From Bacteroidota bacterium (lineage in GTDB: Bacteria; Bacteroidota; Bacteroidia; Bacteroidales; CAIWKO01), in contig JBAXND010000008.1 of NCBI GenBank assembly GCA_037133915.1, positions 16,564 through 80,563 of the forward strand: DNA of 64,000 nucleotides, given 5' to 3'. The notes under the pieces were generated by a model that had not been told where the DNA came from, searched no databases, and saw nothing but the letters and a program-made list of their open reading frames with translations. Every line of letters begins with the position of its first letter. The first letter of the stretch is position 1. The position numbers and the translations under genes are program-made. Positions 12,259 to 62,268 of the stretch are shown here, one piece after another.

Positions 12259-12374
12259 ATCAGGGAACAGGGAATAGGTAATAAGTAATAGGGAACAATA
12301 ATTAGTCAATTTGATAATTCAGGTTTATAAGCCGGCTGTTTTCCCTTTACCCTTTACCTTTCTGCTTAATCTTC

Positions 12375-12493
12375 CGACTCTCGACTCACGACTCACGACT
12401 CACGACTCACGACTCACGACTCTTGACTCACGACTCACGACTCACGACTCACGACTCTTGACTCACGACTCTTGACTCACGACTCTCGACTTT
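12375..12493 (+). repeat. 17 perfect-period tandem heptamers (CGACTCA x8, CGACTCT x5, TGACTCA x3, CGACTTT x1)
   Basis: Direct reading gives 119 nt = 17 x 7 with no indels. It lies in the intergenic region between the receiver/PPDK_N gene and gdhA. Confidence 0.95.
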
Positions 12494-12838: not shown

Positions 12839-14176
12839 ATGAACGTAGATAAAATTATGAACGACCTTGAGAAAAAAAATCCGGGTGAAGTAGAATACCT
12901 GCAGGCCGTTCGTGAAGTGCTTGAATCCATTGAGGAAACTGTGAATGAAAACCCCCAGATCGAAGCTGCCGGCATCATCGAGCGTCTTGTTGAGCCCGAT
13001 CGTCTGCTTATAATCAAAGTTCCCTGGGTTGACGACAAAGGCGAAGTTCATGTAAACAGAGGCTTCCGCGTACAATTTAACAACGCTATCGGACCTTACA
13101 AAGGCGGTCTGCGTTTCCACCCGAGTGTGAATCTCTCAATCCTCAAATTCCTCGGATTTGAGCAGATTTTCAAAAACAGCCTTACTTCCCTTCCTATGGG
13201 CGGTGCTAAAGGTGGTTCAGATTTCGATCCCAAAGGCAAATCAAACGCTGAAGTAATGCGTTTCTGCCAGTCATTTATGCTGGAGCTGTGGAAAATAATT
13301 GGTCCTGAAATGGACGTTCCCGCCGGCGATATTGGTGTTGGTGGACGCGAAATAGGTTTCATGTTCGGTATGTACAAAAAACTTACCCACGAGCATGTTG
13401 GTGTTCTCACCGGCAAAGGTCTCAGCTGGGGTGGTTCACTCATCCGTCCGGAAGCTACCGGTTTCGGTAATGTGTATTTTGCAGAAGAAATGCTGAAAAC
13501 ACGCGGTCTCGATTTCAAAGGAAAAACAGTTGCTATCTCAGGTTTTGGTAATGTTGCATGGGGTGCAGCCCTCAAAGCTACTCAGCTGGGTGCAAAAGTT
13601 GTTACCATCAGTGGTCCCGACGGCTATATCTACGATCCCGAAGGTATCAGCGGTGCAAAAATTGACTATCTCCTCGAACTCCGTGCTTCAAACCAGGATA
13701 TCGTAAAACCATATTCATACGAATTCCCGAATGCTCAGTTCTTCCAGGGCAAACGTCCGTGGGAAGTAAAATGCGACATTGCTCTGCCTTGCGCAACCCA
13801 GAACGAACTTGGTAAAGAAGATGCATTGGCACTCGTTAAAAACGGCTGTATCTGCGTTAGCGAAGGCGCCAATATGCCTTCAACTCCTGAGGCTATTGAA
13901 GTATTCCACGCCAATAAAATTCTATTCGCTCCCGGAAAAGCTTCCAATGCCGGTGGTGTTGCAACTTCAGGTCTCGAAATGTCACAGAATTCAATGAAAC
14001 TGACATGGGGCAAAGAAGAAGTGGATAAACGTTTACACGAAATCATGAAGAACATACATGAAGCCTGTGTTAAACACGGTAAAAACAGTGAAGGTTATGT
14101 GAACTACGTTAAAGGCGCCAACATTGCCGGCTTCCTCAAAGTTGCTCATGCAATGCTCGACCAGGGCGTTTTATAA
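12839..14176 (+). CDS. gdhA: NADP-specific glutamate dehydrogenase
   Basis: 445 aa. It has the hexameric GDH motifs LPMGGAKGGSDFDPKGKS (catalytic Lys region) and GFGNVAWGAA (dinucleotide fold). Full-length colinear look of GdhA. Confidence 0.95.
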   Translation: MNVDKIMNDLEKKNPGEVEYLQAVREVLESIEETVNENPQIEAAGIIERLVEPDRLLIIKVPWVDDKGEVHVNRGFRVQFNNAIGPYKGGLRFHPSVNLSILKFLGFEQIFKNSLTSLPMGGAKGGSDFDPKGKSNAEVMRFCQSFMLELWKIIGPEMDVPAGDIGVGGREIGFMFGMYKKLTHEHVGVLTGKGLSWGGSLIRPEATGFGNVYFAEEMLKTRGLDFKGKTVAISGFGNVAWGAALKATQLGAKVVTISGPDGYIYDPEGISGAKIDYLLELRASNQDIVKPYSYEFPNAQFFQGKRPWEVKCDIALPCATQNELGKEDALALVKNGCICVSEGANMPSTPEAIEVFHANKILFAPGKASNAGGVATSGLEMSQNSMKLTWGKEEVDKRLHEIMKNIHEACVKHGKNSEGYVNYVKGANIAGFLKVAHAMLDQGVL

Positions 14177-14625: not shown

Positions 14626-14643
14626 TTCTCTACTTATGTCTTA

Positions 14644-14704
14644 TGACTTACGACTCACGACTCACGACTCATCCGCCGGAGGCGGACAGGCGACTCACGA
14701 CTCA
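14644..14704 (-). repeat. Second CGACTCA heptamer locus (4 + 2 units) interrupted by a GC hairpin
   Basis: Reading: tgactta cgactca cgactca cgactca - tccgccggaggcggacagg - cgactca cgactca. It ends 4 nt from the stop codon of the minus-strand adhesin gene, so it lies in that gene's 3' UTR. Confidence 0.85.
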
Positions 14705-14707
14705 AGT

Positions 14708-17700
14708 CTACCTCACTAAAGTCACATTCCCCATTATCTTGTACTTCTTATTGAGGTTGTCGGTGTAGTAGGCAATCCATGTATATACCGCCGGAGGAGC
14801 AATGGTACTGCTGCCTTTCACGGAGCCGTCCCAGCCTTTGCCTATTTCGGTGCAGACATACACTTCCTGTCCCCAGCGATCAAAAATATGCATCTCAAAT
14901 TTGTTGGAGATAAGACCCTGGATACTTGGCATAAAGAACTCATTCAAACCATTACCATCAGGGGTAAAGGCCGTGGGCGCAAATATCAGTATCTGTGGGA
15001 AAATGGTAATCAGCCGTGATGTTGTATCGGAACAGCCATGGTTGCTCGATGCAACAAGAATGACATTAAATGTACCCGTATCACTAAAGGTATGCGATGG
15101 CAGGTGCTCCGTAGATTCATTGAGAATTCCTGAGGCAGGATCATCAAAATTCCAGTACCAGGTATTGGCACCCGACGATTGATTTACCATATTCACTTTT
15201 GGATCGTCCATAGTAGCTACCGATGGTGAGAAGTAGAAATCGGCCACCGGTTTTGTATAGACATTGATGGTTGAAACGCCTGTTTCTGTGCAGCCGTCGG
15301 TTGTCACTGCCGTGAGCGATGCGGTGTAGGTACCTTCGTTGGCATAGGTATGCATCGGGCTCAACTCAAAAGATGTATTGTTTGCCGAAAATAAATCACC
15401 AAAATTCCATGCCCATGATGAATCAGCAATGTTGACACCCGGAACATAGTCGAAGTTAACATCAAGTGGCTTGCAGCCTTCGCTTGGCACCGTGCTGAAT
15501 GTAAGTCCCGACAAGGGGAATACGTTAATAAGTACCGTTGCTGCACCTGTGCATCCCACGTTATCGGTACCGGTTACTGTATACACAGTCGTGGTGGTGG
15601 GTGATGCCACAACCGCCGGACCGGTGCTGTTTGATAATCCCGTTGCCGGCGTCCATACATACGTATCGGCACCTGCTGCGAGGCATGTTGTTGATTGTCC
15701 CGGACAAACATTCGCACTCGACGGTAAGGCCGTAACAGTGATTCCGTTTATTACATTAATATTTTGTGTCGCGCTGTTCACACAACTTGTAGCCGGATCA
15801 GTATACGTATAGGTAATGGTTGCAACACCAATCCCTGCTGTTGACGGGGTAAAGGTATTTGCGCTGACTCCCGCTCCCGAATACGTTCCGCCCGCAGGTG
15901 TCGCCGTATTCAGTAAAAATGGTGTTGAGTTCACGCAAACACTTGAGTAATTCGGGAAATTGATGGCAGGAAGATTATTTACAATAATATTGTAAGTTGA
16001 AGTACCAACGCATGAAGTAACCGGATCAGTCAAGGTATAGGTTATCGTATGTGTTCCTACGCCTGCCGTGGCAGGGTCAAACGTTCCAAGGGTGGCATCG
16101 GTAATGCCTGTTCCGCTCCATGTTCCACCGGCAGTGGCGGCACTAAGTGTCGTTGATGGGCTGTCAACACAATACGGTCCCGCAGCGGTTATTGTTGTAT
16201 TCGGGATGGGATTTACAACAACGGTATCTACTCCAATTCCCGGGTTTCCTGTGATACACGAAGGTGAGTTAGAGGTTACCGTACAGCTAATGATATTCGT
16301 TCCTACCGGAAGGTTATTGGCCGAATAAATATTCACACCTGTACCAACGTTTACACCATTCAGTTGCCACTGATAAGTGGGTGCTGTGCCGCCATTGGTA
16401 ACCGTGGCGCCAAATACTACTGTAGTTCCGAAGCATATCGGGCTAACAGGAAGTGATGTTACAACAACACCTACAGGCGCACTTGTATCAACCGTAACAA
16501 CAAAATTAACCGCAGGACCAACACAACCATTGGCAGTCGGTGTGATGGTATAGGTTACAGTACCCAGGGTAGTAAGACTGTTATTAAGGATATCATTGAT
16601 GTTACCGCTTCCGGAACCGCTAAAGCCGGTGATTGTGCCACTGGTATTTGAGCCGGTCCAGCTGAAGGTGGTACCTGTTACGTTTGATGTAAGGATAATA
16701 TTAGTCGACTGTCCGCTGCAAATAGTCAGCGTAAGCGGACTGTTTGTAACGGTGGGTGTCGGATTTACTGTAACTGTATAATTGCCCTGAGGTCCGGTAC
16801 AGCCGTTATACGCTGCATTAATAAGGTAAACAACAGTGCCTGGATTCGAAGTCGTATTCGTAAGAACATCAGTAATATTCCCCGTACCGCTGGGTGTAAA
16901 TCCGGTGATGTTTCCGCTTGGACTGGTCGCCGACCACGCGAATGTGGCACCCGAAATATTTGAAGTCAGAAGTATGTTCAGTGCATCACCTGAGCAGATA
17001 GTCTGAGACAAGGGATTATTGGTGATAACGGGAGTGGGGTTCACTGTGATGGTATAGGTAGCCACAGTACCTGTGCATCCGTTTGCTGTTGGGGTAATGG
17101 TAATGGTAACTGTTCCTGCTGTTGTATCAGAATTTATTAACGTCATTGCGGGAATAGTACTTGTACCGCTTGCTGCTGCACCTGAAATATTCGGTGAAGC
17201 CGATGACGTCCATGCGAAGGTTGTTCCCGGAACAGCAGAGGTAAGCGTAACCGAAGTGGTGGTCTGTCCGCTGCAAATAGTCTGACTCATGGGTGTATTG
17301 GTAACCGTAGGCAGAGGGCTAATGGTTACATTCATACATGTATTTGCACTGTTGCCACAAGCATTTCCGGCGTTTACGCAGATTGTTCCGGAAGTGGTTC
17401 CGAAGGTAACACTGATTGATGTGGTTCCTTGTCCGCTGTTTATTACGGCGCCTGTTGGAACCGTCCAGTTATAAGTGGTTGCTCCGGCTACTGCCGTAAT
17501 TGAATAAGTCTGTGTGGTATTAGGACATGCTGTCGGAGGACCGGTTATAGCTCCGGGAGCGGGTGGCGTCGGTGCCAGCGTCGTGGTAATACACGTAGGA
17601 GCACTCGTGCCGCAGGTATTCGATGCTGTTACGCAAATATTTCCTGCATTGGCGCCAAAAGTCACCGTAATGGAAGTTGTGCCTTGTCCTGATGTAACGG

Positions 17701-53482: not shown

Positions 53483-54649
53483 ATGAAGAACTTGATTAAA
53501 GGAAAAACGGTAAGTATGATAATGATTGGTGCACTTATAAGTGTAATTATTATTATGCAGGCAACAACTATTTTCTCACAAACGGTAGGCGTGGCAATAA
53601 GCCCCAACGGTGGTTCTCCCGACGGTTCCGCAATATTGGATCTTACAAGTGCCGCGCAGGGACTGCGTATTCCACGGGTTGCGCTCACAGATACGGCACT
53701 TGCTTCGCCGGTTGTCAATCCCGCCAATAGTCTGTTGGTTTTTGATACAGTGACTTTTATAAACGGCACATCCGGTTTTTATTACTGGGACGCACCTCAT
53801 ACACAGTGGATAAAGCTAGCCACCGGTAACGGAATTATCGGCCCGACAGGACCTGCAGGTCCCGCGGGTGTAGTTGGACCATCCGGCCCGGCAGGATTGG
53901 CAGGTCAGGCAGGTGCAGTCGGACCCACGGGTCCCACAGGCACAAACGGAAGCAACGGAGCAGCCGGTACAACGGGCGCAACGGGTCCCACAGGTCCCAC
54001 AGGTCCGACAGGTGCAGGGGGATTTTCAAATTTTATTATTATCAGTAATACAGGTACATCAAATGGTACTATTCCTGCCAACATAACAAAAATCATGGTT
54101 GAGGTGTGGGGCGCCGGCGGGGGCGGCGGTTGGGGTGCTGCCTATAATAAATTAGGATCCGGAGGAGGAGGAGGTGGTGCCTATACTTTAGCTATTATCA
54201 GTGTTACTCCGCTGAGCAGCTACAGCGCTTTTGTCGGCACTGGTGGTCCGGGCGGAGCTGGCGGAACACAAATTGCCGGTACTGCCGGAGGCGCCAGCAC
54301 TTTTACCTATGGCAGCACCATCATCACTTCGGGGGGAGGGCAAGGCGGACTTCCCGCTACCGGAAGTGCCGGAACGGCAAGTGGTATCGGTGGGGCAGGC
54401 GGAACTGCAACAACCCTTAATTGTATCAACATTAATGGAACTCCCGGTGAAAATGGTGATTACCTGAATACAAGCCCCGGCAATTGCGGCAATGGCGGAA
54501 GCTCCCCTAATGGCGGTGGAGGAGGATCTGCAGGGGGTGGCGTTCAGGGTTACAGAGATGGCGTTGTCCCCGGTGGTGGCGGTGGTGGAGCGTTTACGTC
54601 TCTGGTATCCGGAAATGGCGCAAATGGACGTGTGGTTATTTGGTACTGA
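53483..54649 (+). CDS. Collagen-like triple-helix repeat protein with C-terminal glycine-rich domain
   Basis: 388 aa, laid out as an N-terminal hydrophobic anchor/signal, then a ~90-aa head module ([19 protein letters not shown]...GLRIPRVA...GFYYWD) and 18 uninterrupted Gly-X-Y triplets ([19 protein letters not shown]...[12 protein letters not shown]). A Gly-rich domain follows ([15 protein letters not shown]...GGGGGGAY...[11 protein letters not shown]). Confidence 0.8.
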
Positions 54650-58117: not shown

Positions 58118-59614
58118 ATGAAAAATCTGAAATTTACTTTCCGCTTCCTGAACCTGAAAGGTGCAATATGTCTTTTTCTCACTTTTCACAGTTTACTGTT
58201 CACGCTTCACGGATTTTCCCAGGGCGTATCAATTAACAGCTCCAATGCAGCGCCCGATCCATCAGCAATGCTCGATGTAAGCGGCACCACTACCGGTGTG
58301 CTGATTAACCGTATGACTTCCGCGCAACGTAATGCAATAGTAAATCCTGCTGAAGGGTTACAAATATTTAATACGGATACGAAATGTATTAATTTCTATA
58401 AAAACCACGGCTGGTTTGAGGTGTGCGGTAACTGTGTACCACCTGCAGCCCCTGTGGCAGGAAATAACGGACCGCTTTGTCTGACTTCCACATTGAATCT
58501 CACAGCATCGGCTATTCCGTATGCTACCTATTCCTGGACCGGACCCAATGGATTTACTTCTACTGCCCAAAATCCTTCAATCACCAATGTTACAACTTCG
58601 AATGGTGGGGTATACTCAGTGATGTCATATATCAATTGTAACAGCAGCGTGGCCACAACCAGTGTCACTGTAATAGGCCCGATTCCCTCAACCTTTACAT
58701 GGAGCTCGTTAAACCCACTTGTTAATGAGTTGGTTACTTTCACGCCCACACAGACGGGCGCTAGTTACAGTTGGACTTTCCAGGGTGGAAATCCGGCTAC
58801 AAGCACTGCCCAAAACCCGGTTGTTTCCTGGGCTATTGGCGGCACCTATAATGTATCCCTTACGGTTACCGTCAGCGGTTGCGTTTCGGTGGTAACAACA
58901 CAGCAGATAACAGCTACTTGTCCTCCCGGTACTGCCTCTTTCACATATACCGGAGCTGTTCAAACATGGACAGTACCACCATGCATTGCAAGCATTTCCA
59001 TTGATGCAAAAGGTGCACAAGGGGGAGGACCTGCGGGTGGAAAAGGCGGTCGGGCGATAGCGACTGTTACTGTAACACCAGGCTCGACGCTCTATATTTA
59101 TGTCGGTGGACAACCAACCACAAGACCGGGCGCAACAAGTGGCGGGTTTAATGGTGGCGGTAAAGTTATGGCGCTGCCATGCGGTGGCTCTACCTCCGAT
59201 GGATGGGGTGGTGGAGGAGCTTCAGACGTAAGAACCTCAGTCAGTCTCAGTGACAGGCTGATTGTTGCTGCCGGTGGTGGTGGTTCCGGCTATAGCAGTG
59301 GCGCCGGTGGAATCGGCGGCGGTCTCACAGGTGGCTCGGGAACAAGCTTCTCGGGTATTGCAACAGGCGGCACACAAACCGGAGGCGGTACATCCGGTGC
59401 CAATCCGGGTAGTCTGGGCATTGGTGGTGATGCGGGTCCCCTTTCCGCTCTTTGTATAGGCGGAGGCGGTGGCGGTGGATATTATGGCGGGGCAGGTGGC
59501 AGCACCGGCAGCGGCGGCGGCGGCTCAAGCTGGACCGGGTATCCGGGAAGCACCAACACGACAAATACAGCCAATTATAATACCGGCAATGGTTCCATCT
59601 CAATAACGTACTAA
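58118..59614 (+). CDS. Glycine-rich-domain protein with Ig-like and PKD-like modules
   Basis: 498 aa. After an N-terminal hydrophobic segment comes the same head module as the 53483 gene (GVSINSSNAAPDPSAMLDV...GVLINRMT...NPAEGLQIFNTD). Next are an Ig-like module (YSWTGPNGFTSTAQNPSI) and a PKD-like module (YSWTFQGGNPATS...YNVSLTV). The glycine-rich domain reads WTVPPCIASISIDAKGAQGG...LYIYVGGQ...GGFNGGG...GGGGASDVR...RLIVAAGGGGSG...GNGSISITY. Confidence 0.8.
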   Translation: MKNLKFTFRFLNLKGAICLFLTFHSLLFTLHGFSQGVSINSSNAAPDPSAMLDVSGTTTGVLINRMTSAQRNAIVNPAEGLQIFNTDTKCINFYKNHGWFEVCGNCVPPAAPVAGNNGPLCLTSTLNLTASAIPYATYSWTGPNGFTSTAQNPSITNVTTSNGGVYSVMSYINCNSSVATTSVTVIGPIPSTFTWSSLNPLVNELVTFTPTQTGASYSWTFQGGNPATSTAQNPVVSWAIGGTYNVSLTVTVSGCVSVVTTQQITATCPPGTASFTYTGAVQTWTVPPCIASISIDAKGAQGGGPAGGKGGRAIATVTVTPGSTLYIYVGGQPTTRPGATSGGFNGGGKVMALPCGGSTSDGWGGGGASDVRTSVSLSDRLIVAAGGGGSGYSSGAGGIGGGLTGGSGTSFSGIATGGTQTGGGTSGANPGSLGIGGDAGPLSALCIGGGGGGGYYGGAGGSTGSGGGGSSWTGYPGSTNTTNTANYNTGNGSISITY

Positions 59615-59639
59615 AGGGCATTTGTAAATTCCAATACCC

Positions 59640-59844
59640 GGACTAACGACGGGGCATCTCGCTTGCTGAAATATTGACTAAGCTTTCCAAAAAACGGACT
59701 ATGCTTGCTGAAATATTGACTTCGCTTCCGGAATAATGGACTACGCTTCCCGAAAAAATGACAATACTTCCTGAAAAAAGGACTACGCTTGCTGAATTAT
59801 TGACTTGGCTTTTCGTAAAAATGACTACGCTTCCTGAAATGTTG
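59640..59844 (+). repeat. 21-bp tandem array, left part (one unit with a 14-nt insertion + 8 exact-period units)
   Basis: Units start at 59675, 59696, 59717, 59738, 59759, 59780, 59801 and 59822. The consensus is KGACTACGCTTCCnGAAAWAA. Confidence 0.9.
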
Positions 59845-61240
59845 GGAGTGTTCAGAAAAGTGTGTCATTCTGCTTGGTGCAGGGTTCTGCCCTGAAGCCG
59901 TAGGCGGAAGGGCAGAACCCTGCAAAGGTATATAATTATAAATATTTTTCATAACGGCTCCCAAACTCCTCCATAAGTTCTTTCTGGATTGATACCCAAC
60001 TCAGGGCTTTCTTGTGCCAGCTTTTTTGGTTGTGCATTAATGCCAGGTATAATTGTTTCAATAATCCTTTATCATTACTCCATGCGCCTTTTGATTTGGT
60101 TACTTTTCGCATTACCCTGTGCAGCGCTTCCACAGGGTTGGTAGTATAAATCATTCTGCGGATATTTTGACTATAATCCATATATGCCATTAACTCTTCC
60201 CATTTTTCTTCCCATTTTGGACGTATTTCCTTGTATTTGCTGTCCCACTGCGTGCCAAATGCAATCAATGCTATAGCTGCCTGCTGCCGGTCCGCTGCTG
60301 TATATATTTTCCGTAAATCACTGCATAATGCTTTGATGTCTTTGTTGCTAACAAACCTAGTTGAACTGCGAATCATATGAACGATACACCGCTGGATAAT
60401 GGATAATGGGAAAACCGCCTCTATCACGTTCTGGAAGCCAGTCAGCCCATCAACACAGAAGAAAATAACATCTTCTACACCTCGTTTCTTAATGTCTTCT
60501 AAAATTAAACCCCATTGCCGGGAACCTTCGGATTCATTTAAATATAAGCCTAAAACATCACGCAGCCCATCTACGGTAACTCCAAAAGCTGTGTATATAG
60601 CTTTACTGATTATCCTGCCATCTTCTCTAACCTTGTAGTGTATGGCATCCAAATATACAATAGCATAACATGGAGCCAATGGGCGTTGCTGCCATTCGAT
60701 GATCTCTGACCAAACTCGGTCAGTCACCGCACTGATTGCTCCAGCACTTACTTCTAATCCATAAAGTTCCCGAAGTTGATAACGAACATCTTCTACCGAA
60801 TGTCCTCGGGCATACAGGCTTAAAATGATGTCATCTAGTCCCGTTCCTAAATCCCGATCCCACTTCTTTATCAGATTTGGCTCATGTTCTCCATTACGAT
60901 CCCTTGGGGTACGAACTTCAATAGGACCGACACGGCTTTTAACCGTTTTATGGGTATGGCCATTGCGCCGATTATCTTTGTCGGTGAGTTTGCTCTCCTT
61001 AAGGTGATAATCCATCTCTCCTTCTAAGGCAGCATTTACAAGAGCTTGTAACATATCCGTGAAAATCCCGCCATCACCCACTATGGGATCTCCATTATAT
61101 AATCTACTTATTACTTCTGCTCTCTTACTTTCGTCCGGTATTAAATCTTCTAATCGCGGTCGTTTTTCTCTTTTATTTTTCTCCATATGTCAAAGTTAAA
61201 AATTGTTTATTCGCTTTGACACACTTTTTTGAACAGCCTC
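59845..61240 (-). mobile_element. IS256-family insertion sequence (1396 bp) with terminal inverted repeats and 8-9 bp target-site duplication
   Basis: The ends GGAGTGTTCAGAAAAGTGTGTCA (59845->) and, reverse-complemented from 61240, GAGGCTGTTCAAAAAAGTGTGTCA share 18/19 inner positions. The element is flanked by direct GAAATGTTG at 59836-59844 and 61241-61249, and carries a single intact transposase ORF. Confidence 0.9.
59936..61186 (-). CDS. IS256 family (Mutator-type) transposase
   Basis: 416 aa with the characteristic blocks IVYLDAIHYKVREDGR, FCVDGLTGF...AVFP...QRCIVHMIRSS and NPVEALHRVMRKVTK. Confidence 0.95.
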   Translation of the reverse strand: MEKNKREKRPRLEDLIPDESKRAEVISRLYNGDPIVGDGGIFTDMLQALVNAALEGEMDYHLKESKLTDKDNRRNGHTHKTVKSRVGPIEVRTPRDRNGEHEPNLIKKWDRDLGTGLDDIILSLYARGHSVEDVRYQLRELYGLEVSAGAISAVTDRVWSEIIEWQQRPLAPCYAIVYLDAIHYKVREDGRIISKAIYTAFGVTVDGLRDVLGLYLNESEGSRQWGLILEDIKKRGVEDVIFFCVDGLTGFQNVIEAVFPLSIIQRCIVHMIRSSTRFVSNKDIKALCSDLRKIYTAADRQQAAIALIAFGTQWDSKYKEIRPKWEEKWEELMAYMDYSQNIRRMIYTTNPVEALHRVMRKVTKSKGAWSNDKGLLKQLYLALMHNQKSWHKKALSWVSIQKELMEEFGSRYEKYL

Positions 61241-61394
61241 GAAATGTTGACTAGGCTTCCTGAAAAAATGACTACGCTTCCCGAAATGTTGACTACGCTT
61301 CCGGAATAAATGACTACGCTTGCTGAATAAATGACTACGCTTCCGAAAAAAATGACTACGCTTCCGGAAAATTGGACAGTTTAATTTTTCGAAT
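61241..61394 (+). repeat. 21-bp tandem array, right part (TSD copy + 6 near-identical units + 1 degenerate unit)
   Basis: Units start at 61248, 61269, 61290, 61311, 61332 and 61353, all beginning TGACTA(C/G)GCTT. A degenerate unit sits at 61374. Confidence 0.9.
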
Positions 61395-61423
61395 TGACTA
61401 ATAGGAACAGCGATTCACAGTAA

Positions 61424-61726
61424 TCAGAATATTTCTATTCCAAACTTTTGAATGTCTGCTAAGAAGTTAGCGTCGTCAAAATCTTTCTCAATCAGGATAG
61501 GTTCAATTCTGTCATCAATTTGTCTTCTCAGTTTCCAAAGTATTGGATTTATTGAAAAATAATCACCGTCAATATGGTTGACAACAATTGCCACATCAAT
61601 GTCGCTGTCTTCTCTGTTTGTGTTTCTTGCGTAGGAACCAAACAGGTATACATTTTCCAGTTGGAAATAATCGTTCAGCAAAAGTTTATACGCTTTTACT
61701 TTATCTATAGCTTCGCTTTTATCCAT
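61424..61726 (-). CDS. Minimal nucleotidyltransferase (MNT) domain protein, putative antitoxin
   Basis: 100 aa with the Pol-beta-superfamily NTase motif LFGSYARNTNREDSDIDVAIVV. Confidence 0.85.
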   Translation of the reverse strand: MDKSEAIDKVKAYKLLLNDYFQLENVYLFGSYARNTNREDSDIDVAIVVNHIDGDYFSINPILWKLRRQIDDRIEPILIEKDFDDANFLADIQKFGIEIF

Positions 61727-62061
61727 TGCTGTATTTCTTTTGTCTTTTCAATTATTTCAATACACTTTGCATCTGTCAGGCTTTTCATGAGCCGCTCTTT
61801 ATGCGATGGATATCTTGCTTCAATATTTAATGGTTCTATTTGATCAATGAATTCCTTTTGGTCTTCAGTGAATGATTCATAAAAATCACCTCTTTTAGCA
61901 AGAAATGATAAACTGTGACTATAAGGGGGAACTTCTGCTTTAACTTTAGTAAAGAATGCTTTAAATGCTTTTTCGATTGTCTGATGGCACATAAAACCTA
62001 CATACAAATATCTTTTGCTTTGAAGCATGGCTTCTGCTGTTTCAATATCATAATCAGACAA
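61705..62061 (-). CDS. HEPN domain protein, putative toxin
   Basis: 118 aa, all-alpha, with a COG2250-like HEPN pattern: AEAMLQSKRYLYVGFMCHQTIEKAFKAF, HSLSFL and EARYPSH. It overlaps the MNT ORF by 22 nt. Confidence 0.75.
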   Translation of the reverse strand: MSDYDIETAEAMLQSKRYLYVGFMCHQTIEKAFKAFFTKVKAEVPPYSHSLSFLAKRGDFYESFTEDQKEFIDQIEPLNIEARYPSHKERLMKSLTDAKCIEIIEKTKEIQQWIKAKL

Positions 62062-62106
62062 GTCAATCCAATATTTAATATTATTTTCCTTGCTATTAAA
62101 TTAATT

Positions 62107-62114
62107 CAAAGATA
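62107..62114 (-). promoter_or_regulatory. Candidate -7 promoter box for the HEPN/MNT operon
   Basis: Plus-strand CAAAGATA is TATCTTTG (TAnnTTTG) on the minus strand, 46 nt upstream of the HEPN ATG. Confidence 0.3.
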
Positions 62115-62208
62115 AAAAAAAGATTGACTGAGTCGAAAATTTTACTGCGTTTTACCGCCTGAAAACAACTCTCCTGAAAATTCGGTTCGGCACACCACGC
62201 CTGCGGAA

Positions 62209-62249
62209 TTTTCAATTAATAATTACTAAAAATAATTATTAATTGAAAA
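62209..62249. other. Perfect 17-bp AT-rich inverted repeat (TTTTCAATTAATAATTA-ctaaaaa-TAATTATTAATTGAAAA)
   Basis: Read directly. It lies 20 nt downstream of the stop of the 62269.. gene and ~150 nt upstream of HEPN. It could be a terminator-like hairpin (no U-run) or an operator. Confidence 0.5.
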
Positions 62250-62268
62250 CCCTGCATCGCATGCGGTA

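Follow-up and report, generated by a model that had tools for sequence, protein, structure and literature searches.

The closest described analogue of the locus studied here is BrickBuilt of Porphyromonas gingivalis, which consists of spacerless 23-nt repeats in 1 to 23 copies, is always intergenic and occurs only in one species and its sister; it has no known function and no Rfam match, and it is not CRISPR (Klein et al. 2015, PMC4596501). Its 19 dispersed copies carry a leader and a tail with IS5-like terminal inverted repeats (TIRs), long stem-loops are predicted for them and promoter activity was measured (PMC4596501). The subject of the present analysis is a tandem array of 21-bp units, named array A, in a stretch of 64,000 nucleotides (the window; positions 16,564 to 80,563 of contig JBAXND010000008.1, assembly GCA_037133915.1) from an uncultured member of the Bacteroidota. 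Like BrickBuilt it belongs to this phylum, is intergenic and consists of spacerless head-to-tail units of about two helical turns with conserved and variable positions. It differs from BrickBuilt in its 21-nt unit, in the lack of predicted RNA structure and of a promoter signal, and in the unrelated flanks of array A and a second array (array B), which probably belongs to the same genome. BrickBuilt is likened here by description, its unit sequence appearing only in a figure.

Iterons, as in the gamma origin of R6K (7 x 22 bp), RK2, P1 and the lambda origin, are direct repeats of 17-22 bp, about two helical turns, with the initiators on one face of the DNA. They adjoin a rep gene on a replicon, where DnaA boxes and an unwinding element accompany them. 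Array A resembles them in repeat length, two-turn spacing and A+T-rich surroundings, but it lacks a rep gene, a DnaA box and an unwinding element, and its unit number is two to four times higher. Centromere arrays such as parC of R1 (10 x 11 bp), parC of pSK41 (20-bp tandem repeats) and sopC of F (12 x 43 bp) are located immediately upstream of parMR, parAB or sopAB. The likeness to these sites lies in phased tandem repeats with dyad elements, which in centromeres wrap into a curved or superhelical nucleoprotein complex, whereas array A is chromosomal, lies between convergent genes and has no par genes. In known curved DNA, for example the bend of kinetoplast minicircles or curved upstream promoter elements, A-tracts are phased with the helix and their bends sum in one plane. 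Array A deviates from this pattern with only one A-tract per two turns, placed in a conserved 21-bp unit that is repeated 14 times, and with no promoter downstream.

A further comparison concerns bacterial variable-number tandem repeat (VNTR) loci (MIRU of mycobacteria, pneumococcal BOX boxB, VNTRDB), which arise and change in length by slippage or unequal exchange and, like array A, are non-coding and intergenic, with higher-order periods and degenerate edges. Unlike VNTRs, array A shows no copy-number polymorphism in the one population seen, and it combines an exact two-turn period with one A-tract per unit and a large predicted curvature. Heptanucleotide repeats (cyanobacterial STRR; TAACTGA, PMC4679880) are likewise intergenic and tandem, and the genome studied here is rich in 7-bp arrays. 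In the account of Mrazek (2007) given in PMC4679880, heptanucleotide repeats are the commonest long simple repeats of bacteria and are ascribed to polymerase slippage.

Array A is a real, non-coding series in which about 17 units of 21 bp follow one another head to tail; it lies in the chromosome of an uncultured member of the Bacteroidota and is split in two by an insertion sequence (IS). An earlier reading of the window, made from the sequence only, had described a tandem array of about 17 units with a TTCCnGAA core, and this description was borne out by Tandem Repeats Finder (TRF), by core matches and by a weight matrix. The array comprises 14 clean units (KGACTACGCTTCCnGAAAAAA), a leading unit that is broken by a 14-nt insertion, and two in-phase units that are degenerate. 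TRF reported a period of 21 for two stretches, 59660-59844 with 8.6 copies and 66% matches, and 61248-61371 with 5.9 copies and 83% matches; in the left half, periods of 42 bp (74% matches) and 63 bp (73%) scored better than 21 bp (66%). Allowing up to three mismatches, the 17-nt core TGACTACGCTTCCNGAA was found at 13 in-register positions of the array and once elsewhere in the window, compared with 0.53 matches expected by chance from dinucleotide-preserving shuffles. The 14 clean units scored 19.0-31.4 bits with a weight matrix derived from them, and the best score elsewhere in the 64 kb was 16.5. Within the unit GAC (columns 2-4), CTT (columns 9-11) and A17 are invariant and columns 7, 12, 14 and 21 hold most of the variation, a pattern that is inflated by the shared descent of the units. 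The individual units quoted in the sequence-only reading, the leading unit with its insertion and the three perfect palindromes TTCCGGAA at 59717, 61290 and 61353 read as they had been given.

The two halves differ in their degree of conservation. In units 1-8, which carry 1-5 mismatches each, T-type and G-type units alternate and thereby form the 42-bp higher-order period; this left half (59675-59844) is the older, more diverged part of the array. Mismatches per unit rise from 1-5 inside the array to 13-17 at its ends. At the left end, local alignment of 59615-59674 to the consensus was of marginal significance (p ~0.014-0.027), and at the right end the similarity of 61374-61415 to the consensus alone was not significant (p ~0.3). 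The proposed extent of 59640-61394 therefore stands at its start and has to be corrected at its end, because two more degenerate units continue in phase to about 61415, 8 nt short of the stop codon of the MNT gene. The 14 contiguous units contain no indel despite about 47 substitutions, and before the IS entered, the array made up about 376 bp of the 404-bp distance from one neighbouring stop codon to the other. The units abut with a start-to-start spacing of exactly 21 bp, and since spacers are absent the array is not CRISPR, as had been stated. The strict phasing at two helical turns was likewise upheld by the 14 in-register units, and the period of array B and the period-dependent predicted curvature add some weight to it.

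The array is identical in every assembly that covers it (SPAdes, MEGAHIT, Logan, JGI; the locus was recovered from five assemblies by exact-protein look-up). Since independent assemblies carry the identical sequence, it is not an assembly artefact. All of these assemblies apparently sample one population, and in this population the unit number was identical throughout; neither a diverged strain nor a sister species with the orthologous locus was met.

A second 21-bp array was met while a paralogue of the glycine-rich gene upstream of array A was followed. Array B is located at 1919-2166 of contig L024 (ENA ERZ4223250 NODE_52) and has a period of exactly 21 bp, 11.8 copies, 80% matches and the consensus CACGGGCTTCTGCAAAAGACG. 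This contig occurs in the same three samples as the window contig, with a coverage of 14.4x versus 13.4x, a GC fraction of 0.448 versus 0.432 and a tetranucleotide correlation of 0.95. The contigs assigned to the probable genome co-occur in samples at 12-14x coverage with tetranucleotide correlations of 0.88-0.97; unrelated Bacteroidota loci reach about 0.85, so that composition discriminates modestly. Judged by these values, the contig with array B probably belongs to the same genome as the window. In array A the unit consists of block 1 (KGAC), the spacer TAC, block 2 (GCTTCCnGAAA) and the tail AAA; in array B block 1 is WGAC, the spacer GCACGG and block 2 GCTTCTGCAAA, and there is no tail. 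Both arrays have GCTT[C/G]..AAA..GAC in common and show the same GCTT[C/G] polymorphism. Compared with array A, the spacer between GAC and GCTT is 3 nt longer in array B and the A-tail 3 nt shorter, and the period is still 21. The similarity of the two consensus sequences is of moderate significance (p ~0.024 versus shuffles), and on this comparison the arrays are probably related. Array B also has a homogeneous centre and decayed edges, as array A does, and its core CTTCTGCAAAAG is dyad-symmetric. The flanks of the two arrays share only chance words of 7-11 nt and no common leader, tail or terminal inverted repeats. A single inverted A-type unit, GGAATACGCTTTCCCAAAATA, is located 45 bp past array B (L024:2210, minus strand).

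Array B comes after a gene for a tyrosine integrase, the 3' fragment of a tRNA and a tRNA-end/hairpin repeat in several copies, and lies 240 bp upstream of an unannotated gene. The integrase gene lies within L024:302-1900 (Arm-DNA-bind_5 / Phage_int_SAM_5 / Phage_integrase). Short direct repeats (TGGTTTAAACA twice and ATTTACTAAC three times) are found 3' of it together with the tRNA 3'-end fragment GGGTCGCGCGTTCGAATCGCGCCGGAATCACA, which is followed by CCGGAATCAC in five copies with a GC-rich hairpin between them (34-bp repeat). From its sequence this region appears to be what several integrations at a single tRNA gene left behind. Array B was also considered as an arm-type integrase site, and this was rejected: the direct repeats ATTTACTAAC and TGGTTTAAACA are to the side of the tRNA fragment that faces the integrase, and array B is located outside. 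Array A showed no link to tRNA fragments or att sites, and no repeat of a tRNA-Arg 3' end was found nearby.

About 57 kb more of the probable genome contained no further 21-bp array. The sequence sampled, probably from one genome, amounts to about 150 kb and includes the two 21-bp arrays and, at five or more sites between genes, arrays of heptamers. One heptamer, CGACTCA (reverse complement TGAGTCG), is repeated in tandem at no fewer than four loci on three contigs (window 12375-12491 with 16.7 copies, window 14645-14705, L024:19752-19784 and L030:8092-8171), and CATTGTT, CAGGGAA and TTTACCC are further heptamers in tandem. Heptamer array stretches were also delimited at 12261-12491 and 14632-14705 of the window, where they flank the open reading frame (ORF) 12839-14176 on both sides, and at L030:8202-8254, L028:14955-14988 and L028:16576-16606. 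Most of the heptamer arrays are intergenic; the two on L028 overlap the 5' ends of called genes.

The predicted curvature of the arrays was calculated with two dinucleotide wedge models (Bolshoy-Trifonov and AA-wedge) in our own rather than a published implementation. The unit contains one A-tract per 21 bp, which is two helical turns. For the reconstructed array A, with the IS removed, the models gave an end-to-end to contour ratio of 0.13, compared with a mean of 0.91 and a minimum of 0.63-0.66 in 392 background windows of equal length. The ratio of array B was 0.46-0.52, also below all 392 background windows. When the units of array A were shortened or lengthened by one base (period 20 or 22), the ratio returned to about 0.85. 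Strong planar curvature is a robust physical prediction of these models, although only a prediction, and we would expect the DNA to be curved in vivo as well.

Several tests addressed other functions of the array. No ORF of 60 or more amino acids in the ORF list overlaps the array, in line with the sequence-only reading. On the minus strand of the reconstructed array a frame of 110 codons is open, with start codons only at codons 95 and 106, and the consensus leaves four of the six reading frames open. A coding repeat was rejected on the basis of the missing usable start, of variable columns that do not fall on third codon positions, and of the lack of homologues. The array was correctly placed 3' of both neighbours, the glycine-rich gene ending at 59614 (plus strand) and the MNT gene at 61424 (minus strand). 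Consensus promoter and terminator sites were inspected in the 3-kb region; promoters were not enriched and none of the sites lies within the units, which agrees with the view that this array between convergent genes is not an ordinary promoter array. Pfam searches took in every neighbour between 50.4 and 64 kb and, across 0-44 kb of the window, another 20 ORFs of up to about 350 amino acids. In these searches rep, par, relaxase or other plausible array-binding genes were absent within about 10 kb; the 14 kb around the array contained no rep, par, relaxase or integrase genes, and none of the ORFs tested had parA/parB, parM/parR or sopAB domains. A DnaA box (TTATCCACA, up to one mismatch) does not occur between 57858 and 63368.

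Searches for the array elsewhere were equally negative within their limits. With a two-unit pattern of 20 specified bases, nothing but isolated chance matches in unrelated DNA was obtained from genome, metagenome and viral contig collections; the metagenome scan missed the array-carrying JGI contig Ga0194052_1118197 (L011), which has six perfect matches, so that the negatives from collections are weak. The right half had no match by blastn among plasmid and phage records, the four translated open frames of the reconstructed array had none among 5.8 billion predicted proteins, and Rfam found a single tRNA in the window and nothing at the array. The consensus, which the sequence-only reading did not recognise from any described element, had no match in any collection searched, within these incomplete scans. 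As to the proposed pattern search for the 21-mer, the scans of the collections gave no further copy, and the 150 kb sampled contain two arrays whose units are related but different. In viral contigs a three-unit core pattern matched only unrelated repeats of 21-bp period that lack the GAC block and resemble putative coding heptad repeats; these were rejected. The core motif GCTTSYNSAA has 15 single sites outside the array versus 5.6 expected from shuffles. This excess was not counted as evidence, as 12 of the 15 are in long ORFs and shuffles ignore codon structure; the other three sites are intergenic and near heptamer arrays. An intergenic repeat with a period of 42 bp, a multiple of 21, occurs in an unrelated Bacteroidota contig with an MNT homologue (L022:951-1098, same in L023; about 3.3 copies of GGCATCCTATATTTTTAGCATGATCATATCAAAAGGTTTTAT); its sequence is unlike the 21-mer array.

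With moderate confidence we explain array A as a lineage-specific non-coding minisatellite that arose, and was kept partly uniform, through slippage or unequal exchange. According to this explanation a 21-bp unit would have been amplified, and replication slippage or unequal recombination would have proceeded in whole-unit or two-to-three-unit steps. Because such turnover would act in whole units or blocks, the units would stay at 21 bp with a uniform centre and decayed edges, and the period of 21 could be kept without selection. Since each unit has one A-tract and 21 bp correspond to two turns, small bends would add in one plane, and the array of about 300 bp would become strongly curved as a by-product that was possibly tolerated or mildly favoured. 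Later the array took up the IS256-family insertion and possibly the HEPN-MNT cassette. The locus has the marks of a minisatellite, namely non-coding head-to-tail units, higher-order periods, a homogeneous centre and decayed edges. Slippage explains the data without a binding protein, and a slippage minisatellite suffices because these marks of unit-wise turnover are found in a genome that is rich in short tandem arrays. It is further supported by the lack of a partner gene and of a consistent position, array A being located between convergent genes and array B upstream of a gene. We infer both the slippage mechanism and the absence of a sequence-specific function; the array would work, if at all, as double-stranded DNA.

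A number of observations weigh against the minisatellite explanation. No variation of the unit number was seen in any of the covering assemblies, which apparently come from one population. Indels are missing from 14 units that each contain an indel-prone A-run, and variation is concentrated in columns 7, 12, 14 and 21 while GAC, CTT and A17 stay invariant. Array B keeps the period of 21 despite its altered block spacing, and on the sequences of A and B the offsetting changes look like a compensation that preserves the helical phase. The cores of both arrays (TTCCnGAA in A, CTTCTGCAAAAG in B) are dyad-symmetric, as in sites of dimeric proteins. Finally, only 0.4-0.8% of column-permuted versions were equally curved for array A and about 4% for array B.

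The missing indels, the column-specific conservation, the dyad-symmetric cores and the period common to A and B would fit a protein-binding or DNA-shape function, which we regard as possible, yet unlikely. In a protein-binding scaffold the unit would be the site of a dimeric or two-block DNA-binding protein that recognises the TTCCnGAA dyad and GAC, and the 21-bp spacing would align the proteins on one face of a pre-curved helix, giving a wrapped or filament-like complex. Such a complex could serve as a nucleoid-organising, silencing or loading site and act in the manner of iterons or parC without being one. The strict phase, the invariant blocks, the palindromic or near-palindromic cores of both arrays and an extreme predicted curvature that is specific to the 21-bp period are in favour of a scaffold, as is the sharing of GCTT[C/G]..AAA..GAC by array B with its offsetting spacing. 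The scaffold is opposed by the lack of a candidate gene for the binding protein nearby and by the geometry of the two arrays: from GAC to GCTT they differ in spacing by 3 bp, equivalent to a twist of about 100 degrees, which one protein reading both blocks would not tolerate. Moreover, the proposed TTC half-site includes C12, one of the most variable columns, the arrays are in unrelated positions relative to genes, and array A persists in every assembly seen although it is split by a 1.4-kb IS. A related array in other organisms was not found in the collections searched, with the incomplete scans described above.

More speculative, and in our judgement doubtful, is the idea that arrays A and B represent a family of phased 21-bp arrays in which selection keeps the period and KGAC ... 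GCTT[C/G]Y..AAA while the spacers are free, and which would be architectural elements. We would be no more confident of the roles that such elements might have as pre-curved, protein-coated loops, which could, for instance, hold the tips of plectonemes in place, serve as loading sites of a nucleoid or condensin-like factor, or keep convergent transcription insulated. If true, this would be an undescribed kind of bacterial structural satellite, and the strong bend would be a preferred target of transposases.

The parallels to BrickBuilt also raise the question of a mobile origin. A repeat block of a non-autonomous mobile element of the BrickBuilt/PgRS kind, that is a transposable element of the miniature inverted-repeat type (MITE) with leader, tail and TIRs spread by a resident transposase, would account for two or more related arrays in one genome and for the single inverted unit beyond array B, and BrickBuilt itself is spacerless, intergenic, species-limited, of similar unit length and from the same phylum (PMC4596501). 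We consider it improbable. The flanks of A and B, the two copies compared, share none of the expected leader, tail or TIRs, the unit sequences differ and so the arrays are not copies of one element, and no long stem-loop is predicted, unlike in BrickBuilt.

Still less probable is a function as a transcribed element, in which read-through RNA would be a 3'UTR stabiliser, a source of antisense or double-stranded RNA, or a decoy that captures RNA-binding proteins, for instance the HEPN RNase. No intrinsic terminator was found between either stop codon and the array, which makes read-through likely, and the HEPN protein, a predicted RNase, is encoded beside it. But folding of the 294-nt array gave z = +0.50 and -0.28 on the two strands and thus no RNA structure beyond shuffled controls on either strand, and the array has neither an Rfam match nor a promoter of its own. 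In addition, the HEPN-MNT pair is mobile and is present in relatives without any 21-mer array, and array B has no such neighbour. The weakest candidate is an iteron-type plasmid or phage origin or a partition centromere, active or as a relic of an integrated replicon: the geometry, with 14 in-register tandem direct repeats of 21 bp at two helical turns and rich in A-tracts, fits, and had suggested this likeness to the sequence-only reading, but the negative searches for rep, par, relaxase and integrase genes, for a DnaA box and for a similar plasmid or phage record, the ordinary chromosomal surroundings and a count of 14-17 units above that of typical iterons make it the least probable of all.

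The coordinates of the array, of the elements that interrupt it and of its neighbours are collected in Table 1.

Table 1. Array A and adjoining features, in window positions.
Feature	Position	Strand	Basis and remarks
Glycine-rich PKD / ALK_LTK_GRD gene, upstream neighbour	58118-59614	+	ORF list and Pfam; stop 25 nt from leading unit
Leading unit	59640-59674	+	G-type 21-mer GGACTA / CGCTTGCTGAAATAT broken by 14-nt insertion; direct reading
Units 1-8 and first 2 nt of unit 9	59675-59844	+	TRF; weight matrix 19.0-31.4 bits
Target-site duplication, copy 1, GAAATGTTG	59836-59844		Identical 9-mer at both IS junctions
IS256-family IS	59845-61240	-	Pfam Transposase_mut, E = 9.8e-95; transposase ORF 59936-61186, minus strand
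Target-site duplication, copy 2, GAAATGTTG	61241-61249		Last two bases begin unit 9
Units 9-14, homogeneous half	61248-61373	+	TRF 83%; weight matrix 29.2-31.3 bits; 1-3 mismatches per unit
Two strongly degenerate units	61374-61415	+	In 21-bp phase: GGAC at 61374, TGACTA at 61395
HEPN-MNT toxin-antitoxin cassette	61430-62127	-	MNT 61424-61726, HEPN 61705-62061 (Pfam); bounds the array, not part of it
Possible remnants of three degenerate units with indels	62125-62190	+	Gapped local alignment, p ~0.02-0.035

The IS inside the array is bounded by the inverted repeats GGAGTGTTCAGAAAAGTGTGTCA and GAGGCTGTTCAAAAAAGTGTGTCA (19-23 nt, 95% complementary). When the IS and one copy of the duplication were deleted, the two halves of the array rejoined in exact 21-bp register. 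The IS is present in all assemblies that reach the insertion site, and a 1.4-kb IS with a clean 9-bp duplication fits DNA in which insertions cost nothing. In another metagenome (L041:1520-1645, same in L042) a solo end resembling the inverted repeat of this IS256-family element, CCTGACACACTTTTTTGAAGACTCC, is located 3' of a 94%-identical MNT gene, and immediately after this end comes a 32-bp tandem repeat (2.2 copies). The cassette on these contigs has MITE-like elements (CCCTCTCTCGTCCTCGTTTGAGCGCA...) on both sides, several of them upstream.

Relatives of the HEPN-MNT pair show about 80% DNA identity exactly across the limits of the cassette and none beyond, and judged by these alignments the pair is a discrete mobile cassette. 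In three relatives (L015, L020, L021) it lies between attC-like elements of 120-170 bp, imperfect palindromes that end in ...CCGTTAGCC or ...GTTAGCA and resemble integron attC sites, which suggests integron-like cassette arrays in Bacteroidota. The cassette in the window has lost, or never had, these elements; it carries its own upstream promoter box of the TAnnTTTG type. Other relatives are found among other repeats, including the 94%-identical relative with its MITE-like repeats, or beside a Fic gene, and no 21-mers were present beside those MNT relatives (89-94% identical protein) that were examined. The possible unit remnants at the far side of the cassette are weak evidence that it may have landed in an older, longer array.

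Orthologues of the glycine-rich neighbour were also inspected; the closest of them (74% identity) lacks an array and is followed by another gene than in the window. Paralogous genes form large clusters in this genome, with five to six consecutive PTL_trimer / PKD / ALK_LTK_GRD glycine-rich proteins on L028 and L030. Another glycine-rich gene of the window (ORF 53483-54649, Gly_rich_2) contains 45-bp and 9-bp coding repeats at 53839-54013 (GGTCCCACA and similar), which encode a collagen-like Gly-X-Y run. Further neighbours carry type IX secretion sorting domains (Pfam), which therefore place the organism in the Bacteroidota. Just past the stop codon of a very large type IX secretion cargo gene (5575 amino acids in the full contig) a long A+T-rich hairpin is located at 62202-62256 (24-nt arms, 88% complementary, 7-nt loop), which is likely the terminator of that gene; a comparable hairpin is lacking at both genes that face the 21-bp array. 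The rest of the window contains ordinary chromosomal genes, among them riboflavin synthase-type, TsaD, ZapA, NuoE-like ferredoxin, TrkA-type channel, NUDIX and ArsR genes.

Taken together, array A is best placed among the bacterial intergenic minisatellites, where it is unusual for its exact two-turn period and its large predicted curvature. If it is only a slippage minisatellite, it provides one documented case of an uncultured freshwater Bacteroidota with intergenic arrays of both 7 and 21 bp. The case also illustrates that arrays of this kind disrupt assembly from short reads and are entered by mobile elements, here an IS of the IS256 family and possibly a toxin-antitoxin cassette. Should selection act on the 21-bp period, the locus would be a hint of a DNA-shape function for bacterial satellite DNA, because two arrays with different block spacing have the same period and each is predicted to be more curved than all 392 background windows.

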